DNA of 64,000 bases from a bacterium (GTDB lineage Bacteria > Patescibacteriota > Patescibacteriia > UBA9934). The translations under genes were made by a program, and so were the position numbers. The DNA lies in assembly GCA_027592325.1 (NCBI GenBank), contig JAQCKO010000001.1, positions 20,247 to 84,246 of the forward strand. The letters are read 5' to 3'. Shown here in pieces: positions 4,634-54,079 of the stretch. The notes below the pieces were generated by a model that worked only from the letters and a program-made list of their open reading frames with translations, had not been told where the DNA came from and made no database searches. The first letter of the stretch is position 1, and each line of letters begins with the position of its first letter.

Positions 4634-4984
4634 TTAGACGAGTTCGAGCTTTACAACCTCGGCTCCATCTCCTTTGCGAGGTCCCATCTTAACAATGCGG
4701 GTGTATCCTCCTTCACGATCTTTGTACTTTGGACCAATGACATCCATAAGCTTATTCACTGGCTGCTCTGTTGTGAAGAATGCAAGAAGCTGACGGCGCG
4801 CCGCGAGATTCCCTTTCTTCGCCTTTGTGATAAGCTTCTCAACCACAGGCTTCACGGCTTTCGCCTTACCTTGCGTTGTTTGAATGCCATCATAGACGAT
4901 GACACTCGTAGCGAGGTCGCGAAGAAGCGCTTTTCGCGCACTTCGGCTTCGCCCGAGCGTTTTTGTTGTATTTCGGTGGCGCAT
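4634..4984 (-). CDS. rplQ: 50S ribosomal protein L17
   Basis: 116 aa. Immediately downstream of rpoA, as in the alpha operon. Confidence 0.93.
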   Translation of the reverse strand: MRHRNTTKTLGRSRSARKALLRDLATSVIVYDGIQTTQGKAKAVKPVVEKLITKAKKGNLAARRQLLAFFTTEQPVNKLMDVIGPKYKDREGGYTRIVKMGPRKGDGAEVVKLELV

Positions 4985-4985: not shown

Positions 4986-5741
4986 TTATTCCGTCTCTTC
5001 TTCTGAATCTTCGTTTTCCTGACTCTCTAATACTTTCTCAGTCAGAGAAGCGTGAGAGAGTTGTCCTGCAATCCAATTAAAGTGATTGAGGATTGTCTCG
5101 GTTGCCTTTTCAACAGCAGCTTGTGCTGTAACGGTTCCATCAGTGGTAATGTTCATGATTACCTTATCGTAGTTGGTGATTTCTCCAACACGCGTATTCT
5201 CTACTTGAAGTCCTGCAGCAACGACCGGACTGAAAAGTGCATCAACAGCGATGAGTCCGATTTCAGTTGTTGGGACTGTGCGTTCTTCGGTTGGAAGATA
5301 CCCTCGCCCACGTTCGACAGTGATTTCCATTTCGAAATCCGTGTCCGTCGTCAGCGTTGCAAGAACAAGTTCTCCATTAACGATTTCTACATCTGCATTT
5401 TTTTCGAATCCTGATGCCATCACTTCACCTTTCTTTTTTTGTGAAAGCGTAAGAACAACAGGATCATCACTATGCACAATCATGCGTAGTTTCTTAAGGT
5501 TCAAGATAATGCTAAGTACATCTTCTTTTACCCCTTCAACACCCATAAATTCGTGCTGAGCACCTTTGATTTTTACCGCCGTTACCGCCGCTCCTTCAAG
5601 TGAAGAAAGCAAAACACGGCGCAGGGCGTTTCCGATTGTGGTTCCATAGCCATGATGAAGTGGCTCAATCGTGAGGATTGATTCGTTTTCGTGTTCACCA
5701 TCGGTGAAGACCATCTTTGAGGGAAGCAAAATATTCTCCAT
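4986..5741 (-). CDS. rpoA: DNA-directed RNA polymerase alpha subunit, N-terminal domain only (no alpha-CTD)
   Basis: 251 aa. A full alpha-NTD (dimerisation and beta/beta' contact region) ends ...ILNHFNWIAGQL, followed only by an acidic tail ESQENEDSEEETE. rplQ starts 2 nt later, so there is no room for a CTD. Confidence 0.88.
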   Translation of the reverse strand: MENILLPSKMVFTDGEHENESILTIEPLHHGYGTTIGNALRRVLLSSLEGAAVTAVKIKGAQHEFMGVEGVKEDVLSIILNLKKLRMIVHSDDPVVLTLSQKKKGEVMASGFEKNADVEIVNGELVLATLTTDTDFEMEITVERGRGYLPTEERTVPTTEIGLIAVDALFSPVVAAGLQVENTRVGEITNYDKVIMNITTDGTVTAQAAVEKATETILNHFNWIAGQLSHASLTEKVLESQENEDSEEETE

Positions 5742-5749: not shown

Positions 5750-6373
5750 TTATCGTGAGTAAAACTCGATAATAAGTTTTGGATCGTAGACCTCTTTCAG
5801 ATCTTCCCCTTCAGGACGTCCCACCACAGTACCTTTGAATGCTCCTTTTTCTAGGTGAAGCCATCCTGGAACTGTGTGTGATTTTGCTCGTTCCTCCATA
5901 TCGGCGAATAGGCCTTTTTTACGCTTATTCTCTCGCACCTCGATTACATCGTCAACTCGAAGCTGGTAAGAAGGGATATTGACCTTCTTTCCGTTTACGA
6001 GGAACATGGCATGACTCACCATTTGTCTTGCCTGTGCACGCGTTTTTGCAAATCCAAGTCGGAATACGGCGTTGTCGAGGCGAGATTCAAGCATGTGCGC
6101 AAGATTCTCTCCAGTGTTCCCAGGAGCCGCAGAAGCCTTTTCGAAATAATTACGAAATTGGCGCTCCATGATGCCATAAATACGCTTTGCTTTCTGCTTT
6201 TCGCGAAGCTGAATCGCATAAACTGAAAGACGTGGATGACGCGCACGTGGACCACCATGTTCTCCAGGAACATATGGACGCCGCTGCATCGTTTTAAGAA
6301 CGCTTTCGCTTGTCGAGAGCGCAACGCCATCGCGTCGGCTCATCTTTGTTAGATGTTTTTGTGTCTTACCCAT
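5750..6373 (-). CDS. rpsD: 30S ribosomal protein S4
   Basis: 207 aa. uS4 family (N-terminal ARY-like region plus S4 RNA-binding domain). Confidence 0.93.
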   Translation of the reverse strand: MGKTQKHLTKMSRRDGVALSTSESVLKTMQRRPYVPGEHGGPRARHPRLSVYAIQLREKQKAKRIYGIMERQFRNYFEKASAAPGNTGENLAHMLESRLDNAVFRLGFAKTRAQARQMVSHAMFLVNGKKVNIPSYQLRVDDVIEVRENKRKKGLFADMEERAKSHTVPGWLHLEKGAFKGTVVGRPEGEDLKEVYDPKLIIEFYSR

Positions 6374-6381
6374 ACCTCACG

Positions 6382-6897
6382 TTATACACGTCGAGCGCGG
6401 CGTGGCCGGCACCCATTATGCGGCACTGGTGTGCGCTCTTTAATTCCTGTAATGCTAAATCCTTTTGCGTTTAGCGAGCGAATTGCAGCATCTTTACCGT
6501 TTCCAATTCCGGTTACGTAAACCATAAGTTCACGGACACCGTAGCGCTCAAGCGCATCTGCAATATCATTTACAACCACTCCGGCTGCATATGGTGTTGC
6601 TTTCTTTGGCCCTTTGAATCCACATTTTCCAGAGCTTGACCATGCAATAATATTTCCATGAGGGTCAGCGACAGAAATAATGGTGTTGTTAAGGCTTGCA
6701 AAAACATAGGCATTTCCTTTAGAAACGCTCTTCATGACACGTTTCTTTCCTTTTGCAGAACGAATATACACTTTCTGATTCGTCGCTTTTGCCTTTGATT
6801 CTGCCTTTTTCTCAGACTGCTTCGCGTCATCTGGCGATGTCACTTGAGTCTCATCGGTAGTAGCCTCTACTACCTGAGTTGTTTTCTCTTCACTCAT
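6382..6897 (-). CDS. rpsK: 30S ribosomal protein S11 with an ~40-aa Lys/Glu-rich N-terminal extension
   Basis: 171 aa. The core from ...KKRVMKSVSKGNAYVFASLNNTIISVADPHGN... is uS11. The N-terminal 40 aa are low-complexity. Confidence 0.9.
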   Translation of the reverse strand: MSEEKTTQVVEATTDETQVTSPDDAKQSEKKAESKAKATNQKVYIRSAKGKKRVMKSVSKGNAYVFASLNNTIISVADPHGNIIAWSSSGKCGFKGPKKATPYAAGVVVNDIADALERYGVRELMVYVTGIGNGKDAAIRSLNAKGFSITGIKERTPVPHNGCRPRRARRV

Positions 6898-6903
6898 AAG
6901 CTT

Positions 6904-7290
6904 TTAGGTCTTCGAGACTACGCGGCGACCGCTACCCGCTGTTTGACGAACGTTTCCACGGCGTGTACGAGAATTTGATTTCGTTCGCTGCCCGCGAGCA
7001 GGAAGATTCTTCGCATGGCGATCTCCTCGGTAAGTCCCAATTTCTTGGAGGCGCTTGACATTTCCTAGCACCTCGCGGCGAAGCTCACCTTCTACCTTCT
7101 GCCCTTTTTCTACAAGTGCACGAATAGTGTTCAGTTGATCTTCACTTAAATCTTTTACGCGGGTGCTCATATCGAGCTGCGATTGCGTTACAATGCGCTC
7201 CGCAGTTGTATTCCCAATTCCATAAACATACGTAAGTGCTATGACTACGCGTTTATTAGATGGAAGGGTAACTCCAGCAATACGTGCCAT
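6904..7290 (-). CDS. rpsM: 30S ribosomal protein S13
   Basis: 128 aa, MARIAGVTLPSNKRVVIALTYVYGIG. Confidence 0.95.
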   Translation of the reverse strand: MARIAGVTLPSNKRVVIALTYVYGIGNTTAERIVTQSQLDMSTRVKDLSEDQLNTIRALVEKGQKVEGELRREVLGNVKRLQEIGTYRGDRHAKNLPARGQRTKSNSRTRRGNVRQTAGSGRRVVSKT

Positions 7291-9123: not shown

Positions 9124-10893
9124 CTACCCTAAAATTGCCTTAATGCGCCGAACACCGGCTGATGACGCTTCCTCTTTTTTGATTTTAAATCCGCCGAGTT
9201 CGCTTGTGCGTTCAACGTGTGGGCCGCCGCAAATTTCAGACGAAAAGTCCCCGATGAAATAGACTTTTATCTTCCCGCCCATTTGCGCGTATTTATCTTC
9301 AAACAGTCCAATCGCTCCGCGTGCCTTTGCCTCTTCTACGGTAAGCAGCTCATGGTGAATTGGCAAATCACTGCCGATTTGCTCGTTCACAATGCGTTCT
9401 ACCTCTTCTATCTGTTCAGGCGTCATTTTTTCTCCATGCGAAAAATCAAATCGGAGCCGCTCACGAGTGATATTACTTCCGCGCTGCTCAACATGATCGC
9501 CAAGAACCGTTCGAAGCGCTTGATGCAATAAATGCGTCGCGGTATGCAGACGAGTCGATTCCGCAGAGTGATCAACAAGCCCTCCTGCAAACTTCTCGCC
9601 TGACCCATCGCGTGAGGTCTCTTGATGTTTTTTAAATTCTGCTTCAAATGCCGCATGGTCAACAGATTGACCATGCTCACGCGCAATCTCTTCGGTCAGC
9701 TCGAGCGGAAATCCAAAGGTTTGATACAAGTCAAATGCATCTGTTCCTGACAGCTGTCCCTTCTTTTCGTAAAGCTTCTCTACTTCACGAAGACCTTTGT
9801 TTAAACTTGTAGCAAATTTTTGTGCTTCTTTCTGAATTTCATCGGTAATCTCTCCCTGATTCGTCCGAAGTTCAGGGTAACCATCCTCAAGCGTGCCGAT
9901 GGTCATATGCACAATACTCGTCAAATCTTTATGCTCACCAGAAATTTTGAGCATTTGGCGTACGGCACGTCGAATCAGCCGGCGCAGAATGTAACCCTGA
10001 TCTTTATTTGATGGGCGCACGCCATCTGAAATCATCATAGTTGCTGCGCGAATATGGTCAGAAATAATGTACAGAGCACGCATGACTTCCACTGTTTCTT
10101 CTGGATTGCCGGAAATAGTTGAAATCTCGGTCAATATCGGCTGGAAGAGCTCGGTCTCATAGACGCTAGCTTTTCCTTGTAAAATAGCCGCCGTACGTTC
10201 AAGCCCCATTCCGGTATCAACATTTCTTTGGGCTAGCGGCGTGAGTACCCCGTCATCCCCCTTATAAAATTGCATAAACACATTATTCCAAATCTCCACC
10301 CAAAGATTGTTTTCTGGATCGAACTTCTCAGGCGCTTCTTCTTCCCCTGTCCAATAAAAAATTTCGGTATCCGGCCCCTGTGGTCCTGTGTGTTTTCCGC
10401 CTGCTGGCCACCAATTGTCATCTTTACCAAGCTTCGCGATGCGCGCATCTGGCACACCTAGCTGAATCCAAAGATTATACGCTTCTTCATCGAAAGGCGC
10501 ATCGTCGTCGCCCGCGAATACACTGACTGCTAAATGATTTGGTGAAATTGCTAGCCATTCCGTTGATGTCAAGAATTCATAACTCCAACGAATAGAATCT
10601 TCTTTAAAATAATCACCAAGTGACCAATTTCCTAGCATCTCAAAAAACGTAAGATGTGTTGCATCTCCTACCTCGTCAATATCACCCGTACGAATACATT
10701 TTTGACTATCCGTAAGCCGATTTCCTGATGGATGCGTTTCGCCCATCAAAAATGGCACCAATGGATGCATGCCCGCCGTTGTAAACAACACCGATGGATC
10801 ATTTTCAGGCACAACCGAAGCAGAAGGAATTTCTGCATGTCCTTTTGATACAAAGAATTCTATAAATTTTCGGCGGAGTGCACTTGCTGTCAT
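9124..10893 (-). CDS. alaS: Alanine--tRNA ligase, compact form lacking the C-terminal C-Ala/oligomerisation domain
   Basis: 589 aa. Class II catalytic core (FTTAGMHPLVPF..., GNWSLGDYFK), and editing-domain metal motifs HTATHLLH and CGGPHV near the C-terminus. Ends about 280 aa short of canonical ~870-aa AlaRS. Confidence 0.88.
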   Translation of the reverse strand: MTASALRRKFIEFFVSKGHAEIPSASVVPENDPSVLFTTAGMHPLVPFLMGETHPSGNRLTDSQKCIRTGDIDEVGDATHLTFFEMLGNWSLGDYFKEDSIRWSYEFLTSTEWLAISPNHLAVSVFAGDDDAPFDEEAYNLWIQLGVPDARIAKLGKDDNWWPAGGKHTGPQGPDTEIFYWTGEEEAPEKFDPENNLWVEIWNNVFMQFYKGDDGVLTPLAQRNVDTGMGLERTAAILQGKASVYETELFQPILTEISTISGNPEETVEVMRALYIISDHIRAATMMISDGVRPSNKDQGYILRRLIRRAVRQMLKISGEHKDLTSIVHMTIGTLEDGYPELRTNQGEITDEIQKEAQKFATSLNKGLREVEKLYEKKGQLSGTDAFDLYQTFGFPLELTEEIAREHGQSVDHAAFEAEFKKHQETSRDGSGEKFAGGLVDHSAESTRLHTATHLLHQALRTVLGDHVEQRGSNITRERLRFDFSHGEKMTPEQIEEVERIVNEQIGSDLPIHHELLTVEEAKARGAIGLFEDKYAQMGGKIKVYFIGDFSSEICGGPHVERTSELGGFKIKKEEASSAGVRRIKAILG

Positions 10894-20745: not shown

Positions 20746-20776
20746 AATATGTTCATTATACTGTTAGACCATCGCA

Positions 20777-20805
20777 TTGACAAGTAGCAAACTACACCTT
20801 ATAAT
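20777..20805 (+). promoter_or_regulatory. Perfect consensus promoter TTGACA-17-TATAAT ending 9 nt before the dus ATG (leaderless transcript predicted)
   Basis: TTGACA at 20777-20782, TATAAT at 20800-20805, ATG at 20815. Confidence 0.6.
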
Positions 20806-20814
20806 ACCTCCCTT

Positions 20815-21780
20815 ATGGAACTAAACTGGAAACAGCAAGTACGCCCCATTATCGCCCTCTCCCCCATGGCCGACATGACCGATTCAGCTTATTGTCGCAT
20901 TGTGAAATCGATAGCGTCACCAATTGTATTCCGAGAAATGGTCTCTGCCGAAGCCGTTATTCGTGGGAATGATAAAACCCTCGATATGTCCGCCATTCAT
21001 GAAGATGAACGGCCTCTTGTGCAGCAAATCTTTGGCGCCCACCCTGATTCCATGCGTGAAGCCGCACGCGTCATAGAGGAAGAACATCATCCTGAGGGAA
21101 TTGATATCAATATGGGCTGCCCTGTGTATAAAATTACGTCAAACTTCAATGGAGCTGCGCTTATGAAAGAGCCTGAGCTTGCGGCAACGATTGTAAAAGA
21201 AATGAAGTCTGTCATCTCTGTTCCACTTTCAACAAAAATGCGAGCCGGCTGGTCTGTGCATACAGAATGCATTGATTTCGCAAAACGTATGGAACAAGCT
21301 GGCTCTGATCTTATTACGGTTCATGGCCGTACAAAAGAACAGGCTTACCGAGGGTTATCGAATCGAAATGTGGTACGTGAAGTCAAGAAGGGTGTCCAGG
21401 TTCCCGTACTCTACAACGGCGATGTGTTCACACATGAGGACTACTTTCAGGCTCTTGAAGAGACAGAATGCGATGGTGTGCTCATTGCCCGTGGTGCGCT
21501 TGGAAATCCATGGATTTTTCGCGACATTGAAGCAAGACTCCGTGGTGAACAACCCACACCCGTAACTATACGCGAACGCATTGACGTTATTTGCCAGCAC
21601 CTTGACCTGCACCTTCTTCAATACGGAGAACAATCAATTACAACCTTCCGCAAACACCTGTCGTGGTATTTCAAAGGCATTTCAAATATGAAGCCGTATA
21701 AACAAGAATTAATGACGACGAAAAATCGTAATGAACTCATTGATATTCTTGAAAAGATTGCTTTACATCTTGACGAATAA
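20815..21780 (+). CDS. tRNA-dihydrouridine synthase
   Basis: 321 aa. ...IALSPMADMTDSAYCRIV... is the Dus TIM-barrel with a C-terminal helical domain. Confidence 0.85.
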   Translation: MELNWKQQVRPIIALSPMADMTDSAYCRIVKSIASPIVFREMVSAEAVIRGNDKTLDMSAIHEDERPLVQQIFGAHPDSMREAARVIEEEHHPEGIDINMGCPVYKITSNFNGAALMKEPELAATIVKEMKSVISVPLSTKMRAGWSVHTECIDFAKRMEQAGSDLITVHGRTKEQAYRGLSNRNVVREVKKGVQVPVLYNGDVFTHEDYFQALEETECDGVLIARGALGNPWIFRDIEARLRGEQPTPVTIRERIDVICQHLDLHLLQYGEQSITTFRKHLSWYFKGISNMKPYKQELMTTKNRNELIDILEKIALHLDE

Positions 21781-21814
21781 CACTAAAGCAGGCAAACTTG
21801 CGGCAATCAAGCCT

Positions 21815-22738
21815 ATGAATATTGGCATCCTTACATTCGTTTCAGACAAGAAAAAAATTGCAAAAGGGACAAAATCTCTTATAAAAGAGCTAAAGCAGCG
21901 TGGTCATAAAGTCACCGTACTTTACACGCCGCTTGTTGGCCTTGTGTTCGGGAATGGAAAAAAACTCGTCTATGACGGTAAAGTTTTAAAAAAGGACAGA
22001 TTTGACACAATCCTCGTGCGTCCTGGATTTACAAGCGACCCAAGTGTGCAATCATCCTTTATCAAACAATTTCAGCTGGCCGGTTTTGATATTATCAATT
22101 CGTACATTGGTGTGTTCCGTGCAAAGAACAAAATTCGCTCTTTGCAGCTACTTGATCATTATGATGTTGCCGTTCCAAAAACCGTTGTCACAAAAGATGC
22201 AACAACGATTACCGAAGCCGCAGAAGCATTCCGATTCCCAGTAATCGTTAAAGCGATTTACGGTACCCATGGCCGTGGGGTCTTTTTGGCAGAATCAAAA
22301 CGCTCTCTTGGGCCCATCATTGAGTATTTAACTGCAAAAGAAAAAGGACCCGTATCTCTGCAGGAATATATTCGCGAAGCAAAAGGGAAAGATTTGCGTA
22401 TATTTGTTTGCGGGAAGAAGATCATTGCTGCCATGGAACGTGTAGCAAAAAGTGGTGAATTTCGTGCAAATTTTCATAAGGGAGGAACAGTCACCGTTGC
22501 AGACCTTTCTAAGGAAGAAAAGAAAATGGCTTTACGGGCAGCAAATATCCTTGGGCTCGACATTGCTGGAGTCGATATTCTGCGAACAAAGAGTGGTCCA
22601 AAGATTATTGAAGTCAATTCAAATCCAGGTCTTGAAGGGATAACAAAGGCAAGCGGGGTCAATGTGGCTTCAAAGCTCGCCGACTACATTGAAAAACGTG
22701 CAACAAGAGTCATTAACGCGCGGCAAACCATTGCTTAG
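21815..22738 (+). CDS. RimK-type ATP-grasp ligase (alpha-L-glutamate ligase family); start set at Met29 of the track ORF
   Basis: ATP-grasp fold with a C-terminal DIAGVDIL...IIEVNSNPGLEGI. The upstream 28 codons overlap the end of dus. Confidence 0.7.
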   Translation: MNIGILTFVSDKKKIAKGTKSLIKELKQRGHKVTVLYTPLVGLVFGNGKKLVYDGKVLKKDRFDTILVRPGFTSDPSVQSSFIKQFQLAGFDIINSYIGVFRAKNKIRSLQLLDHYDVAVPKTVVTKDATTITEAAEAFRFPVIVKAIYGTHGRGVFLAESKRSLGPIIEYLTAKEKGPVSLQEYIREAKGKDLRIFVCGKKIIAAMERVAKSGEFRANFHKGGTVTVADLSKEEKKMALRAANILGLDIAGVDILRTKSGPKIIEVNSNPGLEGITKASGVNVASKLADYIEKRATRVINARQTIA

Positions 22739-23066
22739 CAAGACGCACATCATTTTTCATTTTTTTCGTCATCTGTTCAATGGACTCAAATGGAACAAGT
22801 TCAGATAGTTTTGCAAATAGTATGATGTGCAACTCTTCGTCATACAGGTCACCCTCGAAGTCAAAAAGATGAGACTCTAATACGAGCTCGTTTTTTTGAT
22901 TACGGCGAAGGCAGGAAATTGCCTCACGTCGGCGTCCGTCAAACAGAACAATCGATGCATATACACCGACATCATGCTCGATCTTTTCGAGAATGATATT
23001 GGCCGTCGGCATGTGATAAACAGAAGTTGCCTCTTTGATGCCCGTTTGAACGATTCCTGAATACAT
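22713..23066 (-). CDS. Monofunctional riboflavin kinase (start at Met28 of the track ORF)
   Basis: GIVQTGIKEATSVYHMPTANI...E.HLFDFEGDLYDEEL matches the riboflavin kinase PTAN and E-x-H-L-x-DF-x-GDLYG motifs. No FAD-synthetase domain. Confidence 0.65.
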   Translation of the reverse strand: MYSGIVQTGIKEATSVYHMPTANIILEKIEHDVGVYASIVLFDGRRREAISCLRRNQKNELVLESHLFDFEGDLYDEELHIILFAKLSELVPFESIEQMTKKMKNDVRLAKQWFAAR

Positions 23067-23086
23067 AGAAGGACAATATCGAAATT

Positions 23087-23971
23087 TTGTCAGATAAACA
23101 AGATGCGTTTGAATATGCTGCTTTTTCATGCTATGAACATTATGCACATTTAACCACGGAGGCTGAAATGGCCCAGGAACGGCTTTTTACGCGTGATCCT
23201 GGTCAAATTCGGCTACTCGTGGTCGATCTGATGTTCACGCTCCTTCTCGCGAAAGCACATGAACGAAGGTCCATGGTCTGCGATGTATACCGTCAGATTG
23301 GTAAGCTGAGCGACACAGTTCAGGATCAAGATATTTGGTTAGCGATTCAACGTAGGCGGAACGCTCTCGAGCCGCTCAAGGATGATGACAACTACTGGCG
23401 TCTCGTTAACCAGCAGGTACTCGAGGAATTGCTTGTGGGCAGAGCGCTTCAGTACGCAAATACTCGTGGACGAGACATTCACGATTGCATCCTGACGGAC
23501 CCAAGCCACTATACCGTTTGCCACTGGCTTATGCAGGTATTAGCTCAGGCATCAAAAAACGGCATGCGTGTTGTCATCGGATCAAATCAAAGGGTGGCAT
23601 CTGCAAATCATTTGCTGAACCATTTTTTTACAGACAGCCACTTTTCTGCTGTGTACACCTCTGAGATGCTCGGTGTTCGCAAGCCTCATGCAATGTTTTG
23701 GGAGAACATCCTTCAGCGCGAAGGAATCCCTGCACATGAGGCCCGTCACATCGGCAATTCGGTGCGCTCGGACATGGGATCAGTGAACGCAGGAGTTCGT
23801 GCGATACTCCTCGATCCAACACACGAGCACAGATATCACAGTACGGATCCGAAAAACAGCGATAGCCCCGCTGACTACAGAAGACTTGCACAGCTACTGA
23901 AGGCTGGCAGCGTACGGGCAGCAACCAATGCAACTGAGCTCAGGCAACTGCTAGGGCTCAACTCACACTAA
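23087..23971 (+). CDS. HAD-superfamily hydrolase-like protein (possible alternative start at 23168)
   Basis: Motif I-like LLVVDLMFTLL (nucleophile Asp present, Asp+2 replaced by Met). Motif IV-like IGNSVRSD (Asn instead of Asp). Confidence 0.5.
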   Translation: MSDKQDAFEYAAFSCYEHYAHLTTEAEMAQERLFTRDPGQIRLLVVDLMFTLLLAKAHERRSMVCDVYRQIGKLSDTVQDQDIWLAIQRRRNALEPLKDDDNYWRLVNQQVLEELLVGRALQYANTRGRDIHDCILTDPSHYTVCHWLMQVLAQASKNGMRVVIGSNQRVASANHLLNHFFTDSHFSAVYTSEMLGVRKPHAMFWENILQREGIPAHEARHIGNSVRSDMGSVNAGVRAILLDPTHEHRYHSTDPKNSDSPADYRRLAQLLKAGSVRAATNATELRQLLGLNSH

Positions 23972-28557: not shown

Positions 28558-29112
28558 TCATTCTGCTTGGAATGCCTTCATGTTATACACATGCATGTTT
28601 CCATGTGGGAGCGCTACTGTACGAGTTGGAACGCACCCAGGAAATTGAAATCCATGTGAGATCACAATGGCATGCTCTGGCAAGGTACGGACAATTGGGC
28701 GAATTTTTTCCATCGTCTCGGTGAGCAAATAGAGGCAAAGAACATCGACATCCGATAGATCCGCCTTCATAAAGCTACACGTATGAATTTCTGGAGTGAT
28801 TGGGGCTTTGTGGAGTTTAAATCGAAGGCGTGTCCAATGTGTCAGAATTGGGTTAATATCATACCCAATGACACGCGTTGCATTGTATTCCTTCGCGGCA
28901 ACAAGTAAAAAATCCCCTGCACCAGAACCTAAATCGGCGACAACCTGACCTTGTTCAAGCGGGAGTGCATCGAACATTTCTCGGATAAGTTTTTTTCTTG
29001 TCGCAACAAATGGCGCGCCGCTCATTATGGTGAGGAAGAATGTTGCTATTGCATAAGAAAAGGCCGTTAAAATAACCGCGACGATAATCAATATGCCGAT
29101 CCAAATATTCAT
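28558..29112 (-). CDS. Class I SAM-dependent methyltransferase with an N-terminal TM anchor
   Basis: 184 aa. VADLGSGAGDF (motif I) ... IGYDIN. Confidence 0.65.
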   Translation of the reverse strand: MNIWIGILIIVAVILTAFSYAIATFFLTIMSGAPFVATRKKLIREMFDALPLEQGQVVADLGSGAGDFLLVAAKEYNATRVIGYDINPILTHWTRLRFKLHKAPITPEIHTCSFMKADLSDVDVLCLYLLTETMEKIRPIVRTLPEHAIVISHGFQFPGCVPTRTVALPHGNMHVYNMKAFQAE

Positions 29113-29145
29113 AATGCATCTATTATTCTGTTTTATATCTGAAGT

Positions 29146-29643
29146 TTACTCCCACCATTTTGCATAGGGTGTTTCTGCGAGTAAATATAATTCTTTCTTC
29201 TTATTTGGATGCTTCTTAAGCAACTTCTTTGCAAATATTTGATCAAGTGAATAGCGCCCTCCCCCGCTAAAAAACAGAATACTCGCAATGGCAACAAGTA
29301 GAACCTGTGTTTGTAAATCACGAAAGTCGATGATGACACGCTCAAGGAAAATAGCCACGCTCATTTCAATAAGAACGATGGTACCAACAGCGCGCGCAAA
29401 CAGACCTGATACGGACAGAAGTCCGGCAATAATTTCAACAACACTGAAAAAGATGATGAGCCCTAATGCAAATTCTCCTGGCAGTTCGGCAAGGATAGTA
29501 TCTGATGTTTGCCTCACAAAGGTAAAACGACTCAACCCGGAAAGAATAAGCGAAACACCAAAAATAATACGGAGTGGAATCATTCCCCACATTGGCCGCG
29601 TTGCAAGCAGAGTTAATAAGGCCTTTTCTGTCCGGTGTTTCAT
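29146..29643 (-). CDS. DoxX-family membrane protein (start at internal Met to avoid overlap with the downstream GH5 gene)
   Basis: 4 TM. LRIIFGVSLILSGLSRF resembles DoxX. Confidence 0.45.
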   Translation of the reverse strand: MKHRTEKALLTLLATRPMWGMIPLRIIFGVSLILSGLSRFTFVRQTSDTILAELPGEFALGLIIFFSVVEIIAGLLSVSGLFARAVGTIVLIEMSVAIFLERVIIDFRDLQTQVLLVAIASILFFSGGGRYSLDQIFAKKLLKKHPNKKKELYLLAETPYAKWWE

Positions 29644-29647
29644 GATG

Positions 29648-30643
29648 TCAAGATTCAATAATGTGCTTCCCGGCATTCCATAACCGTTCATCACCTTGTT
29701 GCCGCAAATAATACCACCATTCTACTCCCCATAGATAGGCTGCATCAAGTCCTGTGCGCTTCGCAAATGACATGTGACGCCACAAATCCTCTGCTGTGAA
29801 TAATTCATATGCCGCTTGCAGATTCATATCTTTTGGTGAATGACGAAACCAAGGTTCGACTTGCAATTCCGAGATAATCACTTCACCAGCGAACAGACGT
29901 GCGAGCTGAGATTGTAATCGATACACAGCTGGCGTATGTGGAAAAACGTTATAGCCTATAGGTTCTGTGTATACAATACGATAGAGACTAATGCCAAGAA
30001 TATCGAATCCTGGCGCATGAAAAAGCCAAAATGACTGCTCCCCGCTTGTTGTGCGTTGTAGTTTGTGTTCGTTATCAATCTCGCGAACTAGTTGCGTAAG
30101 ATTTTGTACACGTTCAATGCTCGGCTGCGGACATTCACCGAACGGAAAAAACGGTTCGTTTTCTACCTGCCACGCATAAAGAACTGGATGTGTACTGTAG
30201 CGAGACATAAGCGCAATCGTCAGTGCTTCGATGCCAGGTTCAATGCGGCTATGATCAGCATCTACCCATTCCGGGAGAAAACATTCAGGCCATCTTGGGA
30301 CCTTTACTCCAAGCGCGAGCGTTATACGAACATCATGCGCGGCTGCTTCTTCGAAAATATAGTCGAGCTCAGAAAAATCATAGACACCTGGAGCGGTTTC
30401 AATTTGAGACCAATACGCCGGAATACGAAGATACTTTATGTTTAGTTCTTCAAGTATTGCCCGGTATGCATCTTTCCAGTCAACGCCTAAATACGTTGCG
30501 TACGGGACAGAAAATGTCGCTCCCCATGTTGGAGATTTTTTTGGCAGAGTAGTGGAGAGCAGCAACGCAAGCGCTGAAGCAAATACCATGAGCAAAAGCA
30601 CGACTGACCGATGCTTATATTTCTTCTCGTTGTTCCCGAACAT
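29648..30643 (-). CDS. Membrane-anchored glycoside hydrolase, GH5-like (cellulase/mannanase superfamily)
   Basis: 331 aa. N-terminal TM. WQVENEPF (the NEP acid/base motif) and VIISELQVEPW (nucleophile Glu). Confidence 0.55.
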   Translation of the reverse strand: MFGNNEKKYKHRSVVLLLMVFASALALLLSTTLPKKSPTWGATFSVPYATYLGVDWKDAYRAILEELNIKYLRIPAYWSQIETAPGVYDFSELDYIFEEAAAHDVRITLALGVKVPRWPECFLPEWVDADHSRIEPGIEALTIALMSRYSTHPVLYAWQVENEPFFPFGECPQPSIERVQNLTQLVREIDNEHKLQRTTSGEQSFWLFHAPGFDILGISLYRIVYTEPIGYNVFPHTPAVYRLQSQLARLFAGEVIISELQVEPWFRHSPKDMNLQAAYELFTAEDLWRHMSFAKRTGLDAAYLWGVEWWYYLRQQGDERLWNAGKHIIES

Positions 30644-32180
30644 AATTCATCCATCCCTCAAGAAATTGAATTCCTACCTTTACCGGTGATTCAATAATAA
30701 AGTCGAAGAAGTAAATAATAAAATTGAGTTTTGAAAATTTAAACGAAAGCCAACGCCCTGCTCTCACGACGGGCAGCATGAAAAAGTCGAAGACAGAACC
30801 TATAAGGCCTGTGCGATCGCGTGAGACGATGATATCTCGGACCGTCGCTCGAATACGGATTGCGAAGAAAAGGACAAGCGATACGAAAAAAAGAAACGTA
30901 ATGATCGAGAGCCAAGGAAATTGCAGCTGAGTGAGCAGCAACGCTATCACTCCATACACAAACAGCAGCACAACCCAATACACGACGGTTAACAAACGAG
31001 AAATAGCCGTAAACGAATCTCTTTTTACACGCACATTCAAATGCTCATGATCTGCCCCAACGACAAGTGCCTTCACTGCTGTAATATAATCTTCCTCATT
31101 TTTTCGTTCCGGAATAGTGATTGTAAGGCCAATAAGGGCAAGCAATACAGGTGGCGTAAAGACGGTCACCGAAAGCGGAATCAATGACACATGTCCATAG
31201 ACAAGAAGGTCGTAAGGAACATCCATCATGAGCGCTACAAGTGTTTTTGTAAGAAAAATGAACAAAATTGATTTGAAGACGGTTCTACGCAATTTGGTTC
31301 GAAATTCTTTCGTTCGTGTTTTTAGCTTCTTTTTAACCTCTTTTGCGAGGAATTCTGGATCATTGAGAAGCGCAGTGACGTCATCAGTATCTTCTATCAC
31401 GTCACGCATGACACGGAAGAGTCCGGTTTTTCGGCGCAACAAAATGGCAAGCCGAACGGTCACAGGACTTTGGATTTGACGATTCACTGCTTCAATAACG
31501 ATAGAAAGATTGCCTGCTAGCTCTTCGATAAGCGTACCCGGCGCATGACCAGGCCATTGAGGATAATACAGCGTGAGCAGTCTGAAACGAAGCGTTGCAA
31601 TATTGGAGCGAAGTAACACTTTATGAATAGCTAAATACAGTCGCAAATCTTTATCCTCTTCCTGAACAATTAGTCGAGGATCCCAAATAATACGATGCTT
31701 CATCTCAGCATACATATAGCTGACGAGTGCTTCATCGCGCACAGGTGGTGTGAGTAAATACTCAATTTCCGTTGAGAGAACGTCGACGATAAAGCTGAAT
31801 GCCTGTTCACGATCACTTGGAAGTTTATCAGCTGCCCGAAGTAAGGGCTCGTACTTCATGATGATGGGATTGAGCGTATTCACGAACACTTCAGGGATTT
31901 CATTATTCGGCAAGTACTTTGCCCAAATGAGTTCACGTAAAATATTTTTCCCAATATCATCAAGGGGAATATCTGCACCGAGGAAACGTCGTAACATGCG
32001 CTGGATGGCATTGCGACGAAGAAGATGTTCTTCTTGATATTCAACAGCCGTCCGTACTTTTTCATAAAAAGAACCAGCGCTCGTAGCCGGAGCACTCACT
32101 TCAATGGCTTCTTCTCCTTCTACAGCAAGCTGATGTTCTGCTTTCAGCGATACTGCAAGGTCACGTATGCGTTCTGACAT
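30615..32180 (-). CDS. Hypothetical protein with an ~300-aa soluble N-domain and a C-terminal polytopic membrane domain
   Basis: 521 aa. 6+ TM in the C-terminal half. No recognisable family. Confidence 0.45.
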   Translation of the reverse strand: MSERIRDLAVSLKAEHQLAVEGEEAIEVSAPATSAGSFYEKVRTAVEYQEEHLLRRNAIQRMLRRFLGADIPLDDIGKNILRELIWAKYLPNNEIPEVFVNTLNPIIMKYEPLLRAADKLPSDREQAFSFIVDVLSTEIEYLLTPPVRDEALVSYMYAEMKHRIIWDPRLIVQEEDKDLRLYLAIHKVLLRSNIATLRFRLLTLYYPQWPGHAPGTLIEELAGNLSIVIEAVNRQIQSPVTVRLAILLRRKTGLFRVMRDVIEDTDDVTALLNDPEFLAKEVKKKLKTRTKEFRTKLRRTVFKSILFIFLTKTLVALMMDVPYDLLVYGHVSLIPLSVTVFTPPVLLALIGLTITIPERKNEEDYITAVKALVVGADHEHLNVRVKRDSFTAISRLLTVVYWVVLLFVYGVIALLLTQLQFPWLSIITFLFFVSLVLFFAIRIRATVRDIIVSRDRTGLIGSVFDFFMLPVVRAGRWLSFKFSKLNFIIYFFDFIIESPVKVGIQFLEGWMNYVREQREEI

Positions 32181-32182
32181 AA

Positions 32183-32905
32183 TTAGAAAAATGTTCGATC
32201 ACTTGTATGGCGAATATGCTCAAATGCTTCTTCGGCCGTATCAACAATAGTATACAGCCCTATATCTTCTTTTGAAATGGTGTCGAATTCTTCATACAGT
32301 GTACTCCGAATGAATGCATCCAGCGGCCTCCAGAATGCTGTGCCAACTAATATCACAGGGACAGGCTCAGATTTCTTTGTCTGAATGAGCGTAAGAATTT
32401 CAAATAATTCATCCATTGTTCCAAAGCCACCCGGAAAATAGACGTATGCTTGCGCAGAAGCAGCCAGAATAACTTTTCGGGTGAAGAAATAATGAAATGC
32501 ATGCGATCCATTGACATATGGATTGATGCGTTGCTCCATGGGAAGTTGAATATTCAGTCCAATCGACGCACCACCAGCGTCGTGAGCGCCTTTATTCCCT
32601 GCTTCCATAATACCTGGCCCGCCTCCTGTCACAACAGTAAAATCGTGCTCTGCGAGCAAATTCCCTAGCTTCACGGCTTCTTGATACCAGTGACTCGTCG
32701 GCGCGAGTCGGGCAGATCCGAAAATTGTCACTTCTTTTGAAAGTGTTGAAAGAAATTGGAAACCTTCCACAAACTCCGACATGATCCGGAAAATTCGCCA
32801 GGTTATATCAGACATTTCATTCGGTACCTGATCATGCTCTTTACGATCAAGACAAGCACGTTCTTCTGACGTGAGAGGAATACGAGGACACGTTTTCATA
32901 TACAT
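32183..32905 (-). CDS. LOG-family protein (cytokinin riboside 5'-monophosphate phosphoribohydrolase / TIGR00730)
   Basis: 240 aa. TIFGSARL...VVTGGGPGIMEAGNKGA...PGGFGTMDELFE is the LOG signature. Confidence 0.8.
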   Translation of the reverse strand: MYMKTCPRIPLTSEERACLDRKEHDQVPNEMSDITWRIFRIMSEFVEGFQFLSTLSKEVTIFGSARLAPTSHWYQEAVKLGNLLAEHDFTVVTGGGPGIMEAGNKGAHDAGGASIGLNIQLPMEQRINPYVNGSHAFHYFFTRKVILAASAQAYVYFPGGFGTMDELFEILTLIQTKKSEPVPVILVGTAFWRPLDAFIRSTLYEEFDTISKEDIGLYTIVDTAEEAFEHIRHTSDRTFF

Positions 32906-33063
32906 ACATCATAGCATGCCGCTCCCGTAAACAATGAAGCGGTTCATACATATTTGTCTATATTGTTGTATCTGAAGCTATGATGGTGAAAACGGCTCAT
33001 GAACGTGTGCAAAGCCCGTGCTTGTCATTAACGCCCTGAACAGGATTCTGAATACACCCTCAG

Positions 33064-34059
33064 CTAAAATGGATGAAGCAAATTATGACGTCTTGACTGT
33101 TTTTCCGTTAATCGGCTTCGAAGCGCAGCACCAATCGCCGTCAAGTATAGAAGCACCTCATTTTGCTCGACGAATGGAATGGATAATCGTTCAACTACCG
33201 GAAATACATTTAATGAAAGAGATGTGAGCGTTGACAGTTGATCCGGACCTATCACTCCTGCATCGCCGGCCAGATACAGTCGAGGAATCTCGTACCCTAA
33301 CGAACGAAAATGCGTTACCACGCGCTGTATAGACGATTCGATCAGTTGCATTTCCACTGTATCAACGCGATTATCATGTTTGACGGCATTGTTTGCAGAA
33401 CGTATTGCACCTAGCGGTATAGAACGTGAGAAAAAGAGTCCACCAAAATAATCAAATAAACTTATTGTCGGCCAGTCACTATCTAGCTCAAGCAGCACTG
33501 CCAGTTCATTGTCTTTCAGAGCAACAATTTCACTACCAAAGTGTAAAATTGCACGATAATTGCTAAGCGCCTGCATTTCTATCACGGTCAAATCTACCTT
33601 TGGTACATGCAAAGCGCTCTGTATGTGGCCAGTATCTTCTCGTTCAGCCATGTACACGTCAAGGAGTAGGTAGTCATTCACACGTGCCGATTCTTCGATA
33701 GAGATGACGGCATCAGCGGTTTCTATAGGTGATCGACGCGCGACAGCCTGTAAAAGGTCGGCTTGAAACTGTACCTCAGACAGGCCTGATTTACACCAAA
33801 TACCCATGGTATACATACGGGAATTTGGCATCGATGCAATGGCGGAAATACGTCCGAGCGAACCTAGAAATGGCTCCAATGTTCTTAGAACTTCTTCTCC
33901 ATGTTGAATACGCCCGTCAACAATCATGCCTTCTGGAATAGGAATAGTCTGAAGCGCATGAATCGAACCTTTATTTGCAAGGACGGCGCATCGAACGCTT
34001 TGATCTGTAAATTGGATGCCAACAGTTTTTCCTCCCATATAGGGCATATTTAGCCCCAT
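33064..34059 (-). CDS. pilM: PilM-like type IV pilus assembly protein (actin-like ATPase fold), divergent
   Basis: 331 aa. Last gene of the pilus operon. N-terminal GIQFTD in place of the GIDIG phosphate-1 motif. Assignment rests partly on context. Confidence 0.5.
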   Translation of the reverse strand: MGLNMPYMGGKTVGIQFTDQSVRCAVLANKGSIHALQTIPIPEGMIVDGRIQHGEEVLRTLEPFLGSLGRISAIASMPNSRMYTMGIWCKSGLSEVQFQADLLQAVARRSPIETADAVISIEESARVNDYLLLDVYMAEREDTGHIQSALHVPKVDLTVIEMQALSNYRAILHFGSEIVALKDNELAVLLELDSDWPTISLFDYFGGLFFSRSIPLGAIRSANNAVKHDNRVDTVEMQLIESSIQRVVTHFRSLGYEIPRLYLAGDAGVIGPDQLSTLTSLSLNVFPVVERLSIPFVEQNEVLLYLTAIGAALRSRLTEKQSRRHNLLHPF

Positions 34060-34071
34060 TATACCATGAGG

Positions 34072-34572
34072 CTATCGCGTGAGAGAGATCGAAGAAGTAT
34101 TCTCAGATTCGCAGGCTTGAATAGTAATCGAGCCAGTCGTTGCCTTAGTGATGACGTATCCTGTTGTTCCTGCAGTCCAAGCAGTTGCACCTTGTGGACT
34201 AATTGGCATGGAACCCATGTATCCCTCCGTAACTAATCCACTCAAATCGGCACAGTGTGTATCACTCGCAACAGTTGCATCACATGTGTCGTCATCACAG
34301 CCGGTTGAATCCGTACCAATCATATATATTTGTGCGGCTGTCATATTATCTTTTATCTCTGTCAAATAATCGCCGCCATTATCTACCTGATCAATCTTAA
34401 TCGCATGAAGCAGCTCAGCGATATCAGAGAAGCGCCGAGCGTCACGTGCATCTTGAAATCGTGTACCTGGGTCAAGCGCCGCAAATACCACAGCCGCAAG
34501 GACGGCAAGAATAGAGATGACAATTAATAATTCAACGAGCGTGAATCCTTTTTGTGAAGAAAATCTTTTCAT
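34072..34572 (-). CDS. Type IV major pilin (prepilin N-terminal methylation motif)
   Basis: Start at MKRFSSQKG|FTLVELLIVISILAVLAAV. Cleavage after Gly, Phe+1, Glu+5. A C-terminal Cys pair (CDDDTC...C) for a disulfide loop. ~166 aa. Confidence 0.75.
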   Translation of the reverse strand: MKRFSSQKGFTLVELLIVISILAVLAAVVFAALDPGTRFQDARDARRFSDIAELLHAIKIDQVDNGGDYLTEIKDNMTAAQIYMIGTDSTGCDDDTCDATVASDTHCADLSGLVTEGYMGSMPISPQGATAWTAGTTGYVITKATTGSITIQACESENTSSISLTR

Positions 34573-34606
34573 AGATATGATTGGAAGTATTTTACCATAG
34601 GTGCGA

Positions 34607-35038
34607 TCAATCAATCTCACTCCAACTGGTGATATCTACCGACGAACCACTGACAGAAATTGCTGCAGATGCATTACGCACGTAGCCATTATTATCCGAT
34701 TCGACTGTAATTGTGCATGATGACGAGCATGGCGTTGCAGAGATAACAATCGTGCAATCAGCATTTCCCACACTTATGGCTCCGCCTGAATACGATGTGT
34801 CACGAGAAATACGTAACATTGCTTCATGAACACACGACTCTGCCGCTCCAATCGCATGGCCAGAAGCACGCGTCCCCTCCCCTAGCTCAATCGATCCAAT
34901 GGTCAAAAACACAAGACTTGATGTAACCACGAGTACAAGCGCTGTAAGTACCACAATACCTACCGTTGCCGCTGCGCCACGCGTATCAGACCTCAAGCGG
35001 GATACGAATAGCTGTTTGAAATTCTTCAACATAGTCAA
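34607..35038 (-). CDS. PilX-like pilus assembly protein (N-terminal PilX_N-type hydrophobic segment, no Glu+5)
   Basis: 143 aa. RG-AAATVGIVVLTALVLVVTSSL. Confidence 0.45.
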   Translation of the reverse strand: MTMLKNFKQLFVSRLRSDTRGAAATVGIVVLTALVLVVTSSLVFLTIGSIELGEGTRASGHAIGAAESCVHEAMLRISRDTSYSGGAISVGNADCTIVISATPCSSSCTITVESDNNGYVRNASAAISVSGSSVDITSWSEID

Positions 35039-35504
35039 AAAATGGTGAATTAGATGAGTTTATCGCTTCTAAAGTGTACTCGACCAAAACGATTCCTGCA
35101 TCATCAGCACTTGTAAGATTCGTGAAAACGAGATTCGTCACACGAACACGACCGGTTGTTAATTGTGTTGTTACGCCATTTATTCCTATTTGTAACGATC
35201 CATCATCTTCTGTCAGACTAAAGACCGTTGGATCTTCGCCGGAATCAACCATCGCGAACCGAAGCACTCCTGGATCAACGTCGAATGTTGAGCTTCCGAC
35301 CGTAATACTTGCTGCATGTCGGGCTGCATACGACAGTTTTGCCTGTATGATCGCGGCATTGTAGGCAACTTCAGCGAGCACCTCTGATTTTGCGCGATTT
35401 CGTGTCAGCGTTACAACATACTGCGTAGTAGCGATGAGGACAGAGCTCACAATCGCGACGTACAAAATCATCTCTACAAGGGTTGATCCACGCTTATTCA
35501 ACAT
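34986..35504 (-). CDS. Minor pilin / pseudopilin (prepilin-type)
   Basis: 172 aa. MLNKRG|STLVEMILYVAIV with Glu+5. Confidence 0.65.
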   Translation of the reverse strand: MLNKRGSTLVEMILYVAIVSSVLIATTQYVVTLTRNRAKSEVLAEVAYNAAIIQAKLSYAARHAASITVGSSTFDVDPGVLRFAMVDSGEDPTVFSLTEDDGSLQIGINGVTTQLTTGRVRVTNLVFTNLTSADDAGIVLVEYTLEAINSSNSPFFDYVEEFQTAIRIPLEV

Positions 35505-38319: not shown

Positions 38320-38768
38320 AATGTTGAGATGGTTCCGATGGCATTAATCGTCACCGCCACTGTTCGCGATGTATTCTCGTCTGTAATCGTCAGAGTTTGC
38401 GCCCCTGAAGCTGCATCGCCATTTCCGAAATCAAATCGTATGGTATTACCACCGCTATTTGAAATGGAAAGCTGGCCAGAAAGCGTATGTACTTCATCGT
38501 AATTTGTATCGCGTGATCCGTATGTTGCTCCTTTAAAAAGAGTATAGGATGTTGAATCGATCCGCACACTCCACATGTCATCTGATTCGCCATACATCGT
38601 CCTTAGCTGTGCTCTGCGTAATACTTCGATCAATCCATCCTCTGCTAGTTCAAGCTGATGGTTAGCGAATGCACGACCGGTGAGTGCCGTACTTATAACA
38701 GATAGCGTGGTAATGAGCGCGACCACGATAATGACCTCGACGAGGGTGAAGCCAAACTGTTTCGTCAT
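38316..38768 (-). CDS. Pseudopilin / minor pilin (GspH/FimT-like)
   Basis: 150 aa. MTKQFG|FTLVEVIIVVALI. Confidence 0.7.
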   Translation of the reverse strand: MTKQFGFTLVEVIIVVALITTLSVISTALTGRAFANHQLELAEDGLIEVLRRAQLRTMYGESDDMWSVRIDSTSYTLFKGATYGSRDTNYDEVHTLSGQLSISNSGGNTIRFDFGNGDAASGAQTLTITDENTSRTVAVTINAIGTISTL

Positions 38769-39859
38769 ATTGTGACACTGCCAGTGATTGAATAAATTGG
38801 CGTCAAAATAGAAAGTGCCAATAAGCCGACAAAAAGACCAAGCGCAATAAGGAGAACTGGTTCAATCATTGATGCAAGATTTTTCGATAAGACTTCTATA
38901 CGCTCCTCATAATAATCTGCCAAATAATTGAGTGTTGCTCCCAAATGCCCTGACCGCTCTCCGACTGCCGCCATACGCCTCAACATTTTCGGATACAATT
39001 TTGGGGCAATTTCCAAACTTTCCGACAGTGTCATGCCGGTTTTTACGCGTTCAAGTGCGCGCTTCGCCATCTGTTTATATGCGACATTCCCAAGCGCATC
39101 GCTCGTTACTTTAGTTGCCTCGACAATCGGCGTACCGCTCTCAAGTAGTGTTGAAAGGATTCGACAAAACCGTGCTCGCTGATAGTCGTTCACAAAGCTA
39201 TTGAGTCCTGGTATGTATAAATATGTTCTATCAATATACGGCCGTGCAAATGGCAGACGTGACAACATCACACTCCCAATCAAGACAGCAATCGTGAAAA
39301 CAGTAATAAGAAGGCCATGCCGATCAAAAAGGTTTGCCGTCCAGATAAGCGCACGTGTTGTAATTGGTAACTCAACATTAAGCGAAGTAAAAACATCGGT
39401 AATTTGTGGCAAAACAAAATTTGCTATTCCAAAAAACAAGGCAAGTGACGCAGTAAATACAAGTCCAGGGTAAAGCATAGACGATTGAACCTGTCGCTTA
39501 ATTTTCAAGTCACGCTCCATTTGAATAAATACACGCTCTAAATTCATTGCAAGGGTTCCAGACTGTTCTCCAATGATAATCGAGCTCACAATAAATGGCT
39601 TAAAAATACGTGGTTCAAGCTGTAATGCATCGCCTAGGCTCGCCCCTGCATGCACACGCTTTGATAGACGTTCTAAAACTGGTCGCAATGCACTCCGTTT
39701 GGGTGATTGATCAAAGAGAATATCAAGCGACTCCGGGAGCGTCAGTCCAGCAGAAAGCATAACGGACAAGTTTTTTAAAAACTGAACTAAGTCGACTCCT
39801 TTAACGCCTGTCGTTATTTGAAATGCGAGAATCTTTTTAAGCAGGGTTTTGTTCGCCAT
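38765..39859 (-). CDS. pilC: Type IV pilus platform protein PilC (GspF family)
   Basis: 364 aa. Two GspF repeats with 3 TM. 4-nt overlaps on both sides. Confidence 0.85.
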   Translation of the reverse strand: MANKTLLKKILAFQITTGVKGVDLVQFLKNLSVMLSAGLTLPESLDILFDQSPKRSALRPVLERLSKRVHAGASLGDALQLEPRIFKPFIVSSIIIGEQSGTLAMNLERVFIQMERDLKIKRQVQSSMLYPGLVFTASLALFFGIANFVLPQITDVFTSLNVELPITTRALIWTANLFDRHGLLITVFTIAVLIGSVMLSRLPFARPYIDRTYLYIPGLNSFVNDYQRARFCRILSTLLESGTPIVEATKVTSDALGNVAYKQMAKRALERVKTGMTLSESLEIAPKLYPKMLRRMAAVGERSGHLGATLNYLADYYEERIEVLSKNLASMIEPVLLIALGLFVGLLALSILTPIYSITGSVTI

Positions 39860-39860
39860 A

Positions 39861-41917: not shown

Positions 41918-41939
41918 ACTAACTTCATTATACCATTTT

Positions 41940-54026: not shown

Positions 54027-54045
54027 GCAAAAAAGACTACCATAC

Positions 54046-54074
54046 TTGACAAAAATTCACAGATAGTACAATGT
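54046..54074 (+). promoter_or_regulatory. Candidate promoter TTGACA ... TACAAT/CAATGT for an intergenic plus-strand transcript
   Basis: TTGACA at 54046-54051. -10-like TACAAT at 54067-54072 (15-nt spacer) or CAATGT at 54069-54074 (17-nt spacer). Confidence 0.35.
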
Positions 54075-54079
54075 TGTAT

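Follow-up and report, generated by a model that had tools for sequence, protein, structure and literature searches.

Bacterial RNA polymerase is assembled on an alpha subunit (RpoA) whose C-terminal domain (alpha-CTD) is, by textbook account, universal in Bacteria. The domain binds upstream (UP) promoter elements and is also the contact point for many known activators. In canonical RpoA (329 amino acids (aa) in Escherichia coli and 314 aa in Bacillus subtilis; family model TIGR02027) it is a helix-hairpin-helix domain of ~70-85 aa (PF03118), carried on a flexible linker behind the N-terminal domain (NTD). Here we analysed an rpoA gene that encodes an alpha subunit without this domain, located in a 64,000-nucleotide stretch from an ultra-small bacterium of the Patescibacteria (contig JAQCKO010000001.1 of assembly GCA_027592325.1, positions 20,247 to 84,246), hereafter called the window. 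Its closest laboratory counterparts are the engineered E. coli proteins alpha-235 and alpha-256, which were reportedly described by Igarashi and Ishihama and by Blatter et al. in 1994, and are said to assemble into a polymerase that is catalytically active and initiates at a basal, sigma-dependent level. Measured from the NTD, they are truncated at essentially the position where the window alpha ends. They are, however, laboratory constructs that E. coli does not survive when they are its sole alpha, whereas the window form is natural and conserved. More distantly, archaeal RpoD and eukaryotic Rpb3 (AC40) are homologous assembly-platform subunits that are naturally devoid of an alpha-CTD. The window alpha is clearly of the bacterial type, as it scored 15.6 bits with the model for archaeal subunit D (NF001988), which has a cutoff of 153.

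When E. coli alpha is cut at approximately residue 235, an active core is still assembled, and UP-element use and class I activation are lost (PMC8321222). The same source treats natural alpha-CTD loss in Hodgkinia and Tremblaya and gives one sentence to 'Parcubacteria' (PMC8321222). In the paper cited there for that sentence, the word 'polymerase' is absent from the main text (Nelson and Stegen 2015; PMC4508563). A 2025 study of alpha-CTD evolution describes the domain as 'ubiquitously present across all Bacteria' (PMC12531629), and a 2024 perspective on Patescibacteria mentions neither RNA polymerase nor promoters. Apart from the single sentence in PMC8321222, no treatment of alpha-CTD loss in the Candidate Phyla Radiation (CPR)/Patescibacteria was found in the literature searched. 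CTD-less alphas are thereby known as a kind, but barely described. The alphas of Hodgkinia, Tremblaya and the Euglena plastid have, like the window alpha, naturally lost the CTD but kept the NTD, and they too are encoded by small genomes that have few regulators. The endosymbiont alphas differ in coming from intracellular symbionts and, in some Hodgkinia, in having an eroded NTD, whereas the window alpha belongs to a huge environmental radiation and has an intact NTD. Unlike the losses in Hodgkinia, Tremblaya and the Euglena plastid, the window-type loss is moreover common to many lineages, and distinct replacement tails are found in relatives.

The window gene (Table 1) occupies the rpoA position in the canonical alpha-operon order rpsM-rpsK-rpsD-rpoA-rplQ, which is common to canonical rpoA and was also found at related loci. 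It was originally predicted to be rpoA with a product of 251 aa, and both the open reading frame (ORF) and the family models agree with this. Two Pfam domains were detected above cutoff, PF01193 at residues 26-221 (E=8.8e-19) and the insert domain PF01000 at residues 56-171 (E=6.6e-31). These were the only Pfam matches of the protein, and PF03118 was not found in it; E. coli RpoA, used as a positive control, gave PF03118 at E=3e-24. With TIGR02027, the NCBIfam model for rpoA, the window protein scored 248.1 against a cutoff of 227.8 and covered model positions 3-228 of 298. Scores for the NF0035xx (PRK05182) equivalogs were all below their cutoffs (e.g. 266.6 against 277 for NF003519), because only ~250 of 320 model positions were covered (positions 1-250 for NF003519).

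Alignment to the B. subtilis protein paired the window alpha with residues 23-245 of 314, and the end of the window alpha, QLSHASLTEKVLESQENED, was placed opposite the B. subtilis interdomain linker, LTDEAQHAEIMVEKEEDQK. Together with the coverage of NF003519, this alignment indicates that the window alpha terminates within the interdomain linker, in line with the predicted absence of the alpha-CTD. The predicted 13-aa acidic tail, ESQENEDSEEETE, is present as well; counted from the conserved LTEK motif it measures 15 aa and has a net charge of -8, and there are no basic residues among the last 15 residues of the protein. The rpoA stop codon TAA lies at 4988..4986 and the rplQ ATG at 4984..4982. 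The spacer is thus 1 nt, with the rplQ start codon 2 nt past the stop as predicted, and it leaves no space for a CTD. An Rfam scan of the window detected no alpha-operon leader and returned only two tRNAs.

A truncated essential gene may also be an assembly or sequencing error or a pseudogene, in which a frameshift or premature stop masks a downstream CTD. The unusual length of the protein is the sole point that speaks for such an artefact. The position of rplQ, 1 nt past the stop, contradicts it, as no downstream sequence is able to encode a CTD, and the three plus-strand ORFs overlapping rpoA had no family or Pfam matches. The strong conservation of the NTD, described next, is likewise not expected of an artefact.

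The original prediction held the alpha-NTD to be complete, which was supported by the Pfam matches and by structure modelling. An AlphaFold2 model of the window alpha (34 homologues) reached a mean predicted local distance difference test (pLDDT) score of 86.4. The pLDDT was high to residue ~230 and fell to 46-62 in the tail. When the model was compared with the PDB using Foldseek, the matches were solely bacterial polymerase alpha chains (E ~1e-25), among them those of Clostridium thermocellum, S. aureus, M. tuberculosis, Thermus and E. coli. Template modelling (TM) scores against NTD-only chains were ~0.86-0.92 when target-normalised and 0.72-0.82 when query-normalised, and the best matches had a root-mean-square deviation (rmsd) of ~1.6-2.3 Å across ~217-221 columns. 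The window alpha thus has a complete NTD fold, which is shared with canonical RpoA at 39-43% identity. The GNALRR assembly motif is also common to both, and arginines R41 and R42 of GNALRRVLLSS were invariant in a 25-sequence alignment of diverse homologues. From work in E. coli, these arginines are known to be required for binding of the beta subunit. Strong conservation was also seen for the NTD.

The conservation of the truncation itself was evaluated from the best 120 matches among 5.8 billion proteins, which shared 66-92% identity and came from NCBI, JGI, ENA and Logan assemblies with contigs of up to 874 kb. All 120 were 240-287 aa long and contained PF01000 and PF01193, and none contained PF03118. 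Their C-termini had the motif GQLxHASLTE(K/Q) in common, followed by a variable tail of 10-37 aa with a net charge of -1 to -16, which was never neutral or positive. Those with names were assigned to 'Candidatus Uhrbacteria' or 'Patescibacteria group', and Uhrbacteria fall within the Parcubacteria group in the NCBI taxonomy. The window alpha fits this acidic-tail (Uhrbacteria-like) type, characterized by an NTD-only protein of ~240-290 aa, the GQLxHASLTE(K/Q) motif, a net-negative tail and rplQ as the next gene.

Reference genomes were surveyed by scanning one genome per GTDB species with a 10-sequence alignment. This gave at least 80 loci, which represent a sample and not a census. At each listed locus, rpoA was re-called and tested with an iterated CTD hidden Markov model (HMM). 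Among the matches listed, the CTD was kept at all 59 non-Patescibacteria loci, including Bacillota, Planctomycetota, Chloroflexota, Actinomycetes, Alphaproteobacteria, Elusimicrobia and Nitrospirota, while the Patescibacteria comprised 18 loci without a CTD and three with one (one of them Andersenbacteria). Uhrbacteria, Magasanikbacteria, Falkowbacteria, Parcubacteria and Paceibacteria are represented among the CTD-less loci, although a few of the 18 records are obviously mislabelled. L17 was encoded directly downstream of rpoA at all 18, and a search of all frames within ±3 kb of the gene detected no CTD at these loci. With this HMM, E values of 1e-13 to 1e-17 were obtained for the three Patescibacteria that bear a CTD. 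The alpha of Candidatus Uhrbacteria UBA11707 (L001), for example, is 247 aa long and 69% identical to the window alpha.

The alpha-CTD is likewise retained in Giovannonibacteria. One CTD-bearing Patescibacteria rpoA (P0130, 346 aa) was found in the identical operon infA-rpmJ-rpsM-rpsK-rpsD-rpoA-rplQ-rplM-rpsI, which identifies the window gene as a truncated ortholog of an ordinary rpoA and not a paralogue. The truncation is lineage-specific yet widely shared. It is a clade-wide trait of many Patescibacteria, conserved over much of this radiation, which the original prediction did not note. CTD-less and CTD-bearing Patescibacteria interleaved in a neighbour-joining tree of the NTD, which would mean that the CTD was lost several times; this tree is unbootstrapped and is not relied on here. 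With the identical architecture in 120 homologues and 18 reference genomes, the artefact explanation loses its ground. The frameshift against which the original prediction had cautioned, or any other assembly error at rpoA, is ruled out by this conservation and by the abutting rplQ, and given the conservation an assembly error at the stop codon (4986-4988) is very unlikely. We regard the probability that the truncation is an artefact or a pseudogene as negligible.

The genome could instead supply the CTD in trans, as a stand-alone alpha-CTD-like protein or on a second, CTD-bearing alpha paralogue that would join the polymerase. The latter arrangement is known from Francisella. When the window was searched by tblastn with the E. 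coli CTD, the lowest E value was 0.5 (inside secA), and an iterated CTD HMM run with filters off against the six-frame translation of the window reached 0.26 (inside rpsM). These values are at noise level, and on these grounds we rejected the idea that the window contains a CTD in a different frame or on the opposite strand. Together with the empty ±3 kb flanks of the 18 CTD-less Patescibacteria loci, these searches speak against a CTD in trans, whereas the fact that 64 kb of the source genome was covered leaves this explanation some room.

Stand-alone CTDs do exist in nature. A profile of Patescibacteria CTDs was searched against the 5.8 billion proteins and retrieved 38 short PF03118-only proteins, and the contigs of seven of these were examined. 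Four cases, all in ribosomal-protein operons, turned out to be artefacts: two stemmed from frameshifted assemblies, one from a contig end and one from an N-gap. The other three were genuine stand-alone ORFs, of 68 aa (mid-contig on an 88-kb contig), 129 aa (recurrent) and 115 aa (Table 1), in neighbourhoods without a ribosomal-protein operon. The stand-alone alpha-CTD-like ORFs at L083 (5001-5207) and L086 (648-1037) lie beside other metabolic or efflux genes. The existence of such ORFs favours a CTD in trans, but none of the genuine ones was near a ribosomal-protein operon and every examined match from such an operon was an artefact. A free CTD, untethered from the NTD, would furthermore forfeit the linkage that makes the domain useful. 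The survey of PF03118-only proteins argues weakly against a trans-encoded CTD in these lineages, and we consider this explanation quite improbable.

Other CTD-less alphas were examined for what follows the NTD. The 150 best matches were drawn from 1.84 billion representatives (clusters at 50% identity), and the CTD HMM divided them into 85 with and 65 without a CTD, ~20-30 of the latter being spurious, either frame-shifted or chimeric. Of the CTD-less representatives that were genuine, 23 had an acidic or neutral low-complexity tail with a Lys-rich end (KKRGRPKK in four of the 23), and 17 had acid-only tails. For the 18 CTD-less reference loci listed, a Lys-rich end was seen in 11, with KKRGRPKKSE in one of the 18 (Candidatus Parcubacteria BM507). 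A short acidic or neutral tail was present in four, and three were tail-free with lengths of 232-234 aa (L007, L010 and L011). A basic or AT-hook tail, which the original prediction did not mention and the window lineage lacks, is found in most of the other CTD-less lineages.

The AT-hook-ended alphas belong to a large clade of Patescibacteria. When a profile was built from five RGRP-tailed alphas, its matches were 120 clusters with 46-100% identity to the first query (most 61-96%), which were named Parcubacteria, Falkowbacteria or Patescibacteria. RGRP was found in the last 20 residues of 114 of these 120 matches, a fraction that is biased upward since the query contained the motif. It was preceded by a linker of 27-79 aa with a median net charge of -8, and the C-termini scored 12.5-14.1 bits with the Pfam AT_hook model (13 residues), just under the threshold of 17.4. 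AT-hooks bind the minor groove of AT-rich DNA, as the alpha-CTD does at UP elements. By this analogy, the AT-hook or Lys-rich ends may be minimal binders of the AT-rich minor groove, and the AT-hook is a plausible substitute for the CTD. Neither a report linking AT-hooks to rpoA as a replacement tail nor a description of the AT-hook- and Lys-rich-ended alphas was found in the literature searched. The AT-hook- and Lys-rich-tailed alphas resemble the window alpha in their CTD-less NTD (40-50% identity), acidic stretch and operon, but they end in KKRGRPKK or a Lys cluster, whereas the window alpha has an acid-only tail. Indeed, the AT-hook motif [KR][KR]RGRP[KR]K is absent from the last ~20 residues of the window alpha, which ends in ...VLESQENEDSEEETE. 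The replacement tails of the sister lineages appear to be the more novel lead, with the acid-only form of the window as the null end-state. As a separate observation, a singleton alpha of 332 aa (P0129, on a single 2,964-bp Logan contig) contained two SAP/HeH-like (Rho_N-like) repeats past the acidic stretch, at the position of the CTD (SAP_new25, E=8e-5, below the Pfam threshold).

These tails also bear on whether the acidic tail of the window alpha is itself an active module, acting as a DNA mimic or electrostatic brush that would hold upstream DNA away from the polymerase, or as a docking peptide for a basic, DNA-binding CTD substitute. Such a role would agree with the net-negative charge in all 120 relatives despite the varying length and sequence of the tail, and with the high conservation of the preceding GQLxHASLTE(K/Q) motif. 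It would also agree with the acidic linker and AT-hook or Lys-rich end at the same position in sister lineages, whose varied ends mark the alpha C-terminus as a site of functional innovation. However, acidic linkers occur in CTD-bearing alphas too (e.g. VEKEEDQKEK in B. subtilis), so that an acidic composition alone is expected of a remnant. The tail also seems to be dispensable, since the three alphas of 232-234 aa are essentially tail-free, and no candidate binding partner emerged. We therefore find an active tail unlikely.

The original prediction further stated that the -35 and -10 elements in the window are very consensus-like. This holds for one site with a score of 12/12 and one with 11/12 (Table 1), but the overall excess was modest, with 44 sigma-70-like consensus sites in the first 20 kb versus 32.5 ± 5.6 in shuffles. 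The whole window contained 103 consensus sites, of which 17 scored at least 10/12, and six of these 17 lie in the intergenic 10% of the window. The 12/12 and 11/12 sites are arranged back to back in a divergent spacer of 69 bp (20746..20814), where their palindromic -35 hexamers overlap (TTGACA/TGTCAA), and both have a -10 hexamer that ends 9 nt before an ATG. Of 61 genes, 14 had a -10-like hexamer at a distance of 5-11 nt before the start codon, compared with 0-8 (mean ~4) at control offsets; examples of this start-site pattern are the gene starts at 20745(-), 20815(+), 16853(+), 48471(-) and 52358(+). Shine-Dalgarno (SD)-like motifs were not enriched upstream of the starts, being found for 4 of 61 window genes versus 3-11 at control offsets. 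As judged from the sequence, this suggests frequent leaderless mRNAs and SD-independent initiation in the window. The AT content upstream of the -35 element of promoter-like sites was 55-73%, versus a background of 52-54%, for a small number of sites (n=7). Strong core promoters and leaderless-type starts would fit a polymerase that is reliant on sigma-read elements, and the consensus promoters may be linked to the loss of the CTD, as the original prediction suggested.

Overall, we consider it probable that the window gene is a genuine and functional rpoA, and the only one detectable locally, of an Uhrbacteria-like Patescibacterium whose ancestor lost the CTD and whose alpha acts as a scaffold only. 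We hypothesize that the domain was lost in the ancestor of the Uhrbacteria-like lineage (CPR, 'Parcubacteria group') by truncation inside the interdomain linker. The alpha dimer would then serve solely as a scaffold for the assembly of beta and beta', and the 15-residue acidic tail would be leftover linker, probably a disordered stub that does not bind DNA. Extrapolating from the biochemistry of E. coli and B. subtilis, the polymerase would be unable to make the minor-groove contacts between alpha and UP elements, and activators that need to bind the alpha-CTD (class I type) would have no means of recruiting it. With the CTD lost, promoter strength would have to come from the core elements read by sigma (-35 and -10), and regulation would probably be exerted via sigma, beta/beta' or repression.

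Four points weigh against a scaffold-only alpha of this kind. The CTD search spans 64 kb of the genome, so a separate CTD or a CTD-bearing paralogue could be encoded elsewhere in it. The strictly net-negative tail in all 120 relatives could reflect a selected function instead of a passive stub. The mild AT enrichment upstream of promoter-like sites leaves room for other upstream recognition. Finally, the loss of UP-type recognition in the window lineage is a consequence that we infer.

The scaffold-only alpha could also be one part of a larger, undescribed and radiation-wide remodelling of how the polymerase contacts upstream DNA, with AT-hook or Lys tails in other lineages and the acid-only end-state here. 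We put this forward tentatively, as a possibility with the odds rather against it. In such a remodelling, an AT-hook or Lys tail of ~10 residues, tethered by an acidic linker, would re-create UP-like recognition of the AT-rich minor groove. The acid-only lineage may depend exclusively on core promoters read by sigma, with many of these positioned to give leaderless mRNAs, or its tail may instead recruit a hypothetical basic adaptor.

Table 1. Location of rpoA, its neighbours and promoters in the window, and of related features at other loci
Feature	Position	Strand	Remarks
rpoA, CTD-less RNA polymerase alpha, 251 aa	4986..5741, stop included	-	ATG-start ORF
alpha-NTD, residues ~1-226, dimerisation and beta/beta' assembly platform	5064..5741	-	Pfam limits, R41/R42, fold
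C-terminal extension, residues 227-251: QLSHASLTEK motif, then acidic tail VLESQENEDSEEETE	4989..5063	-	
rplQ, ribosomal protein L17	4634..4984	-	Ribosomal_L17, E=7e-34 (Pfam)
rpsM-rpsK-rpsD, directly upstream of rpoA	5750..7290	-	S4 and S11 by Pfam; S13 from ORF translation
Perfect promoter site TTGACA-17-TATAAT, 12/12	20777..20805	+	Upstream of Dus-family gene
Promoter site, 11/12	within 20746..20814	-	Upstream of 122-aa ORF of unknown function
AT-hook-tailed alphas: NTD, acidic linker, KKRGRPKK	P0128, P0135, P0149, P0232, P0334-P0451; locus L012 3001-3834		
Stand-alone alpha-CTD-like ORF, 115 aa	L090 849-1196		Phage-like locus with DnaB, HNH, YopX

Several other features of the window were noted. 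The S11 protein (6382-6897, -; 171 aa) has a low-complexity N-terminal extension that is first acidic and then Lys-rich, with the Pfam S11 domain starting from residue 61. An alanyl-tRNA synthetase of 589 aa (9124-10893, -) ends just past the second additional domain, so that the usual C-terminal region is apparently absent; alongside rpoA, this is a further domain loss in an essential protein. A SecD/SecF-type translocase subunit (49664-51685, -) contains an embedded PpiC-type peptidyl-prolyl isomerase domain at residues ~247-354. A RimK-like ATP-grasp enzyme is encoded at 21731-22738 (+) and a stand-alone riboflavin kinase domain protein at 22713-23147 (-); ribKL/ribF was reported absent from the Parcubacteria genomes examined by Nelson and Stegen (PMC4508563). 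A long same-strand gene run at 29000-45000 (-) is possibly part of a type IV pilus locus. It includes a 941-aa protein (35494-38319, -) with LVIVD/beta-propeller repeats and, at its N-terminus, a weak match to a pilin-type methylation motif that stays under the Pfam threshold. The longest intergenic region of the window (54027-55207) contains two adjacent tRNA genes (54618-54761, +).

For the window, the results give rpoA a sound annotation, as a gene that is genuinely truncated and not an error. More generally, where a major environmental radiation conserves an alpha without the CTD, the layer of promoter recognition and activation that depends on the domain is either missing or constructed in another way. 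UP elements and class I activation should consequently not be presumed when promoters and regulons are predicted in these genomes. The alpha-truncation experiment has in effect already been done by nature in free-standing lineages, and neighbouring lineages with a CTD, with AT-hook or Lys-rich tails and with acid-only tails form a comparative series for the worth of upstream contacts between alpha and DNA.

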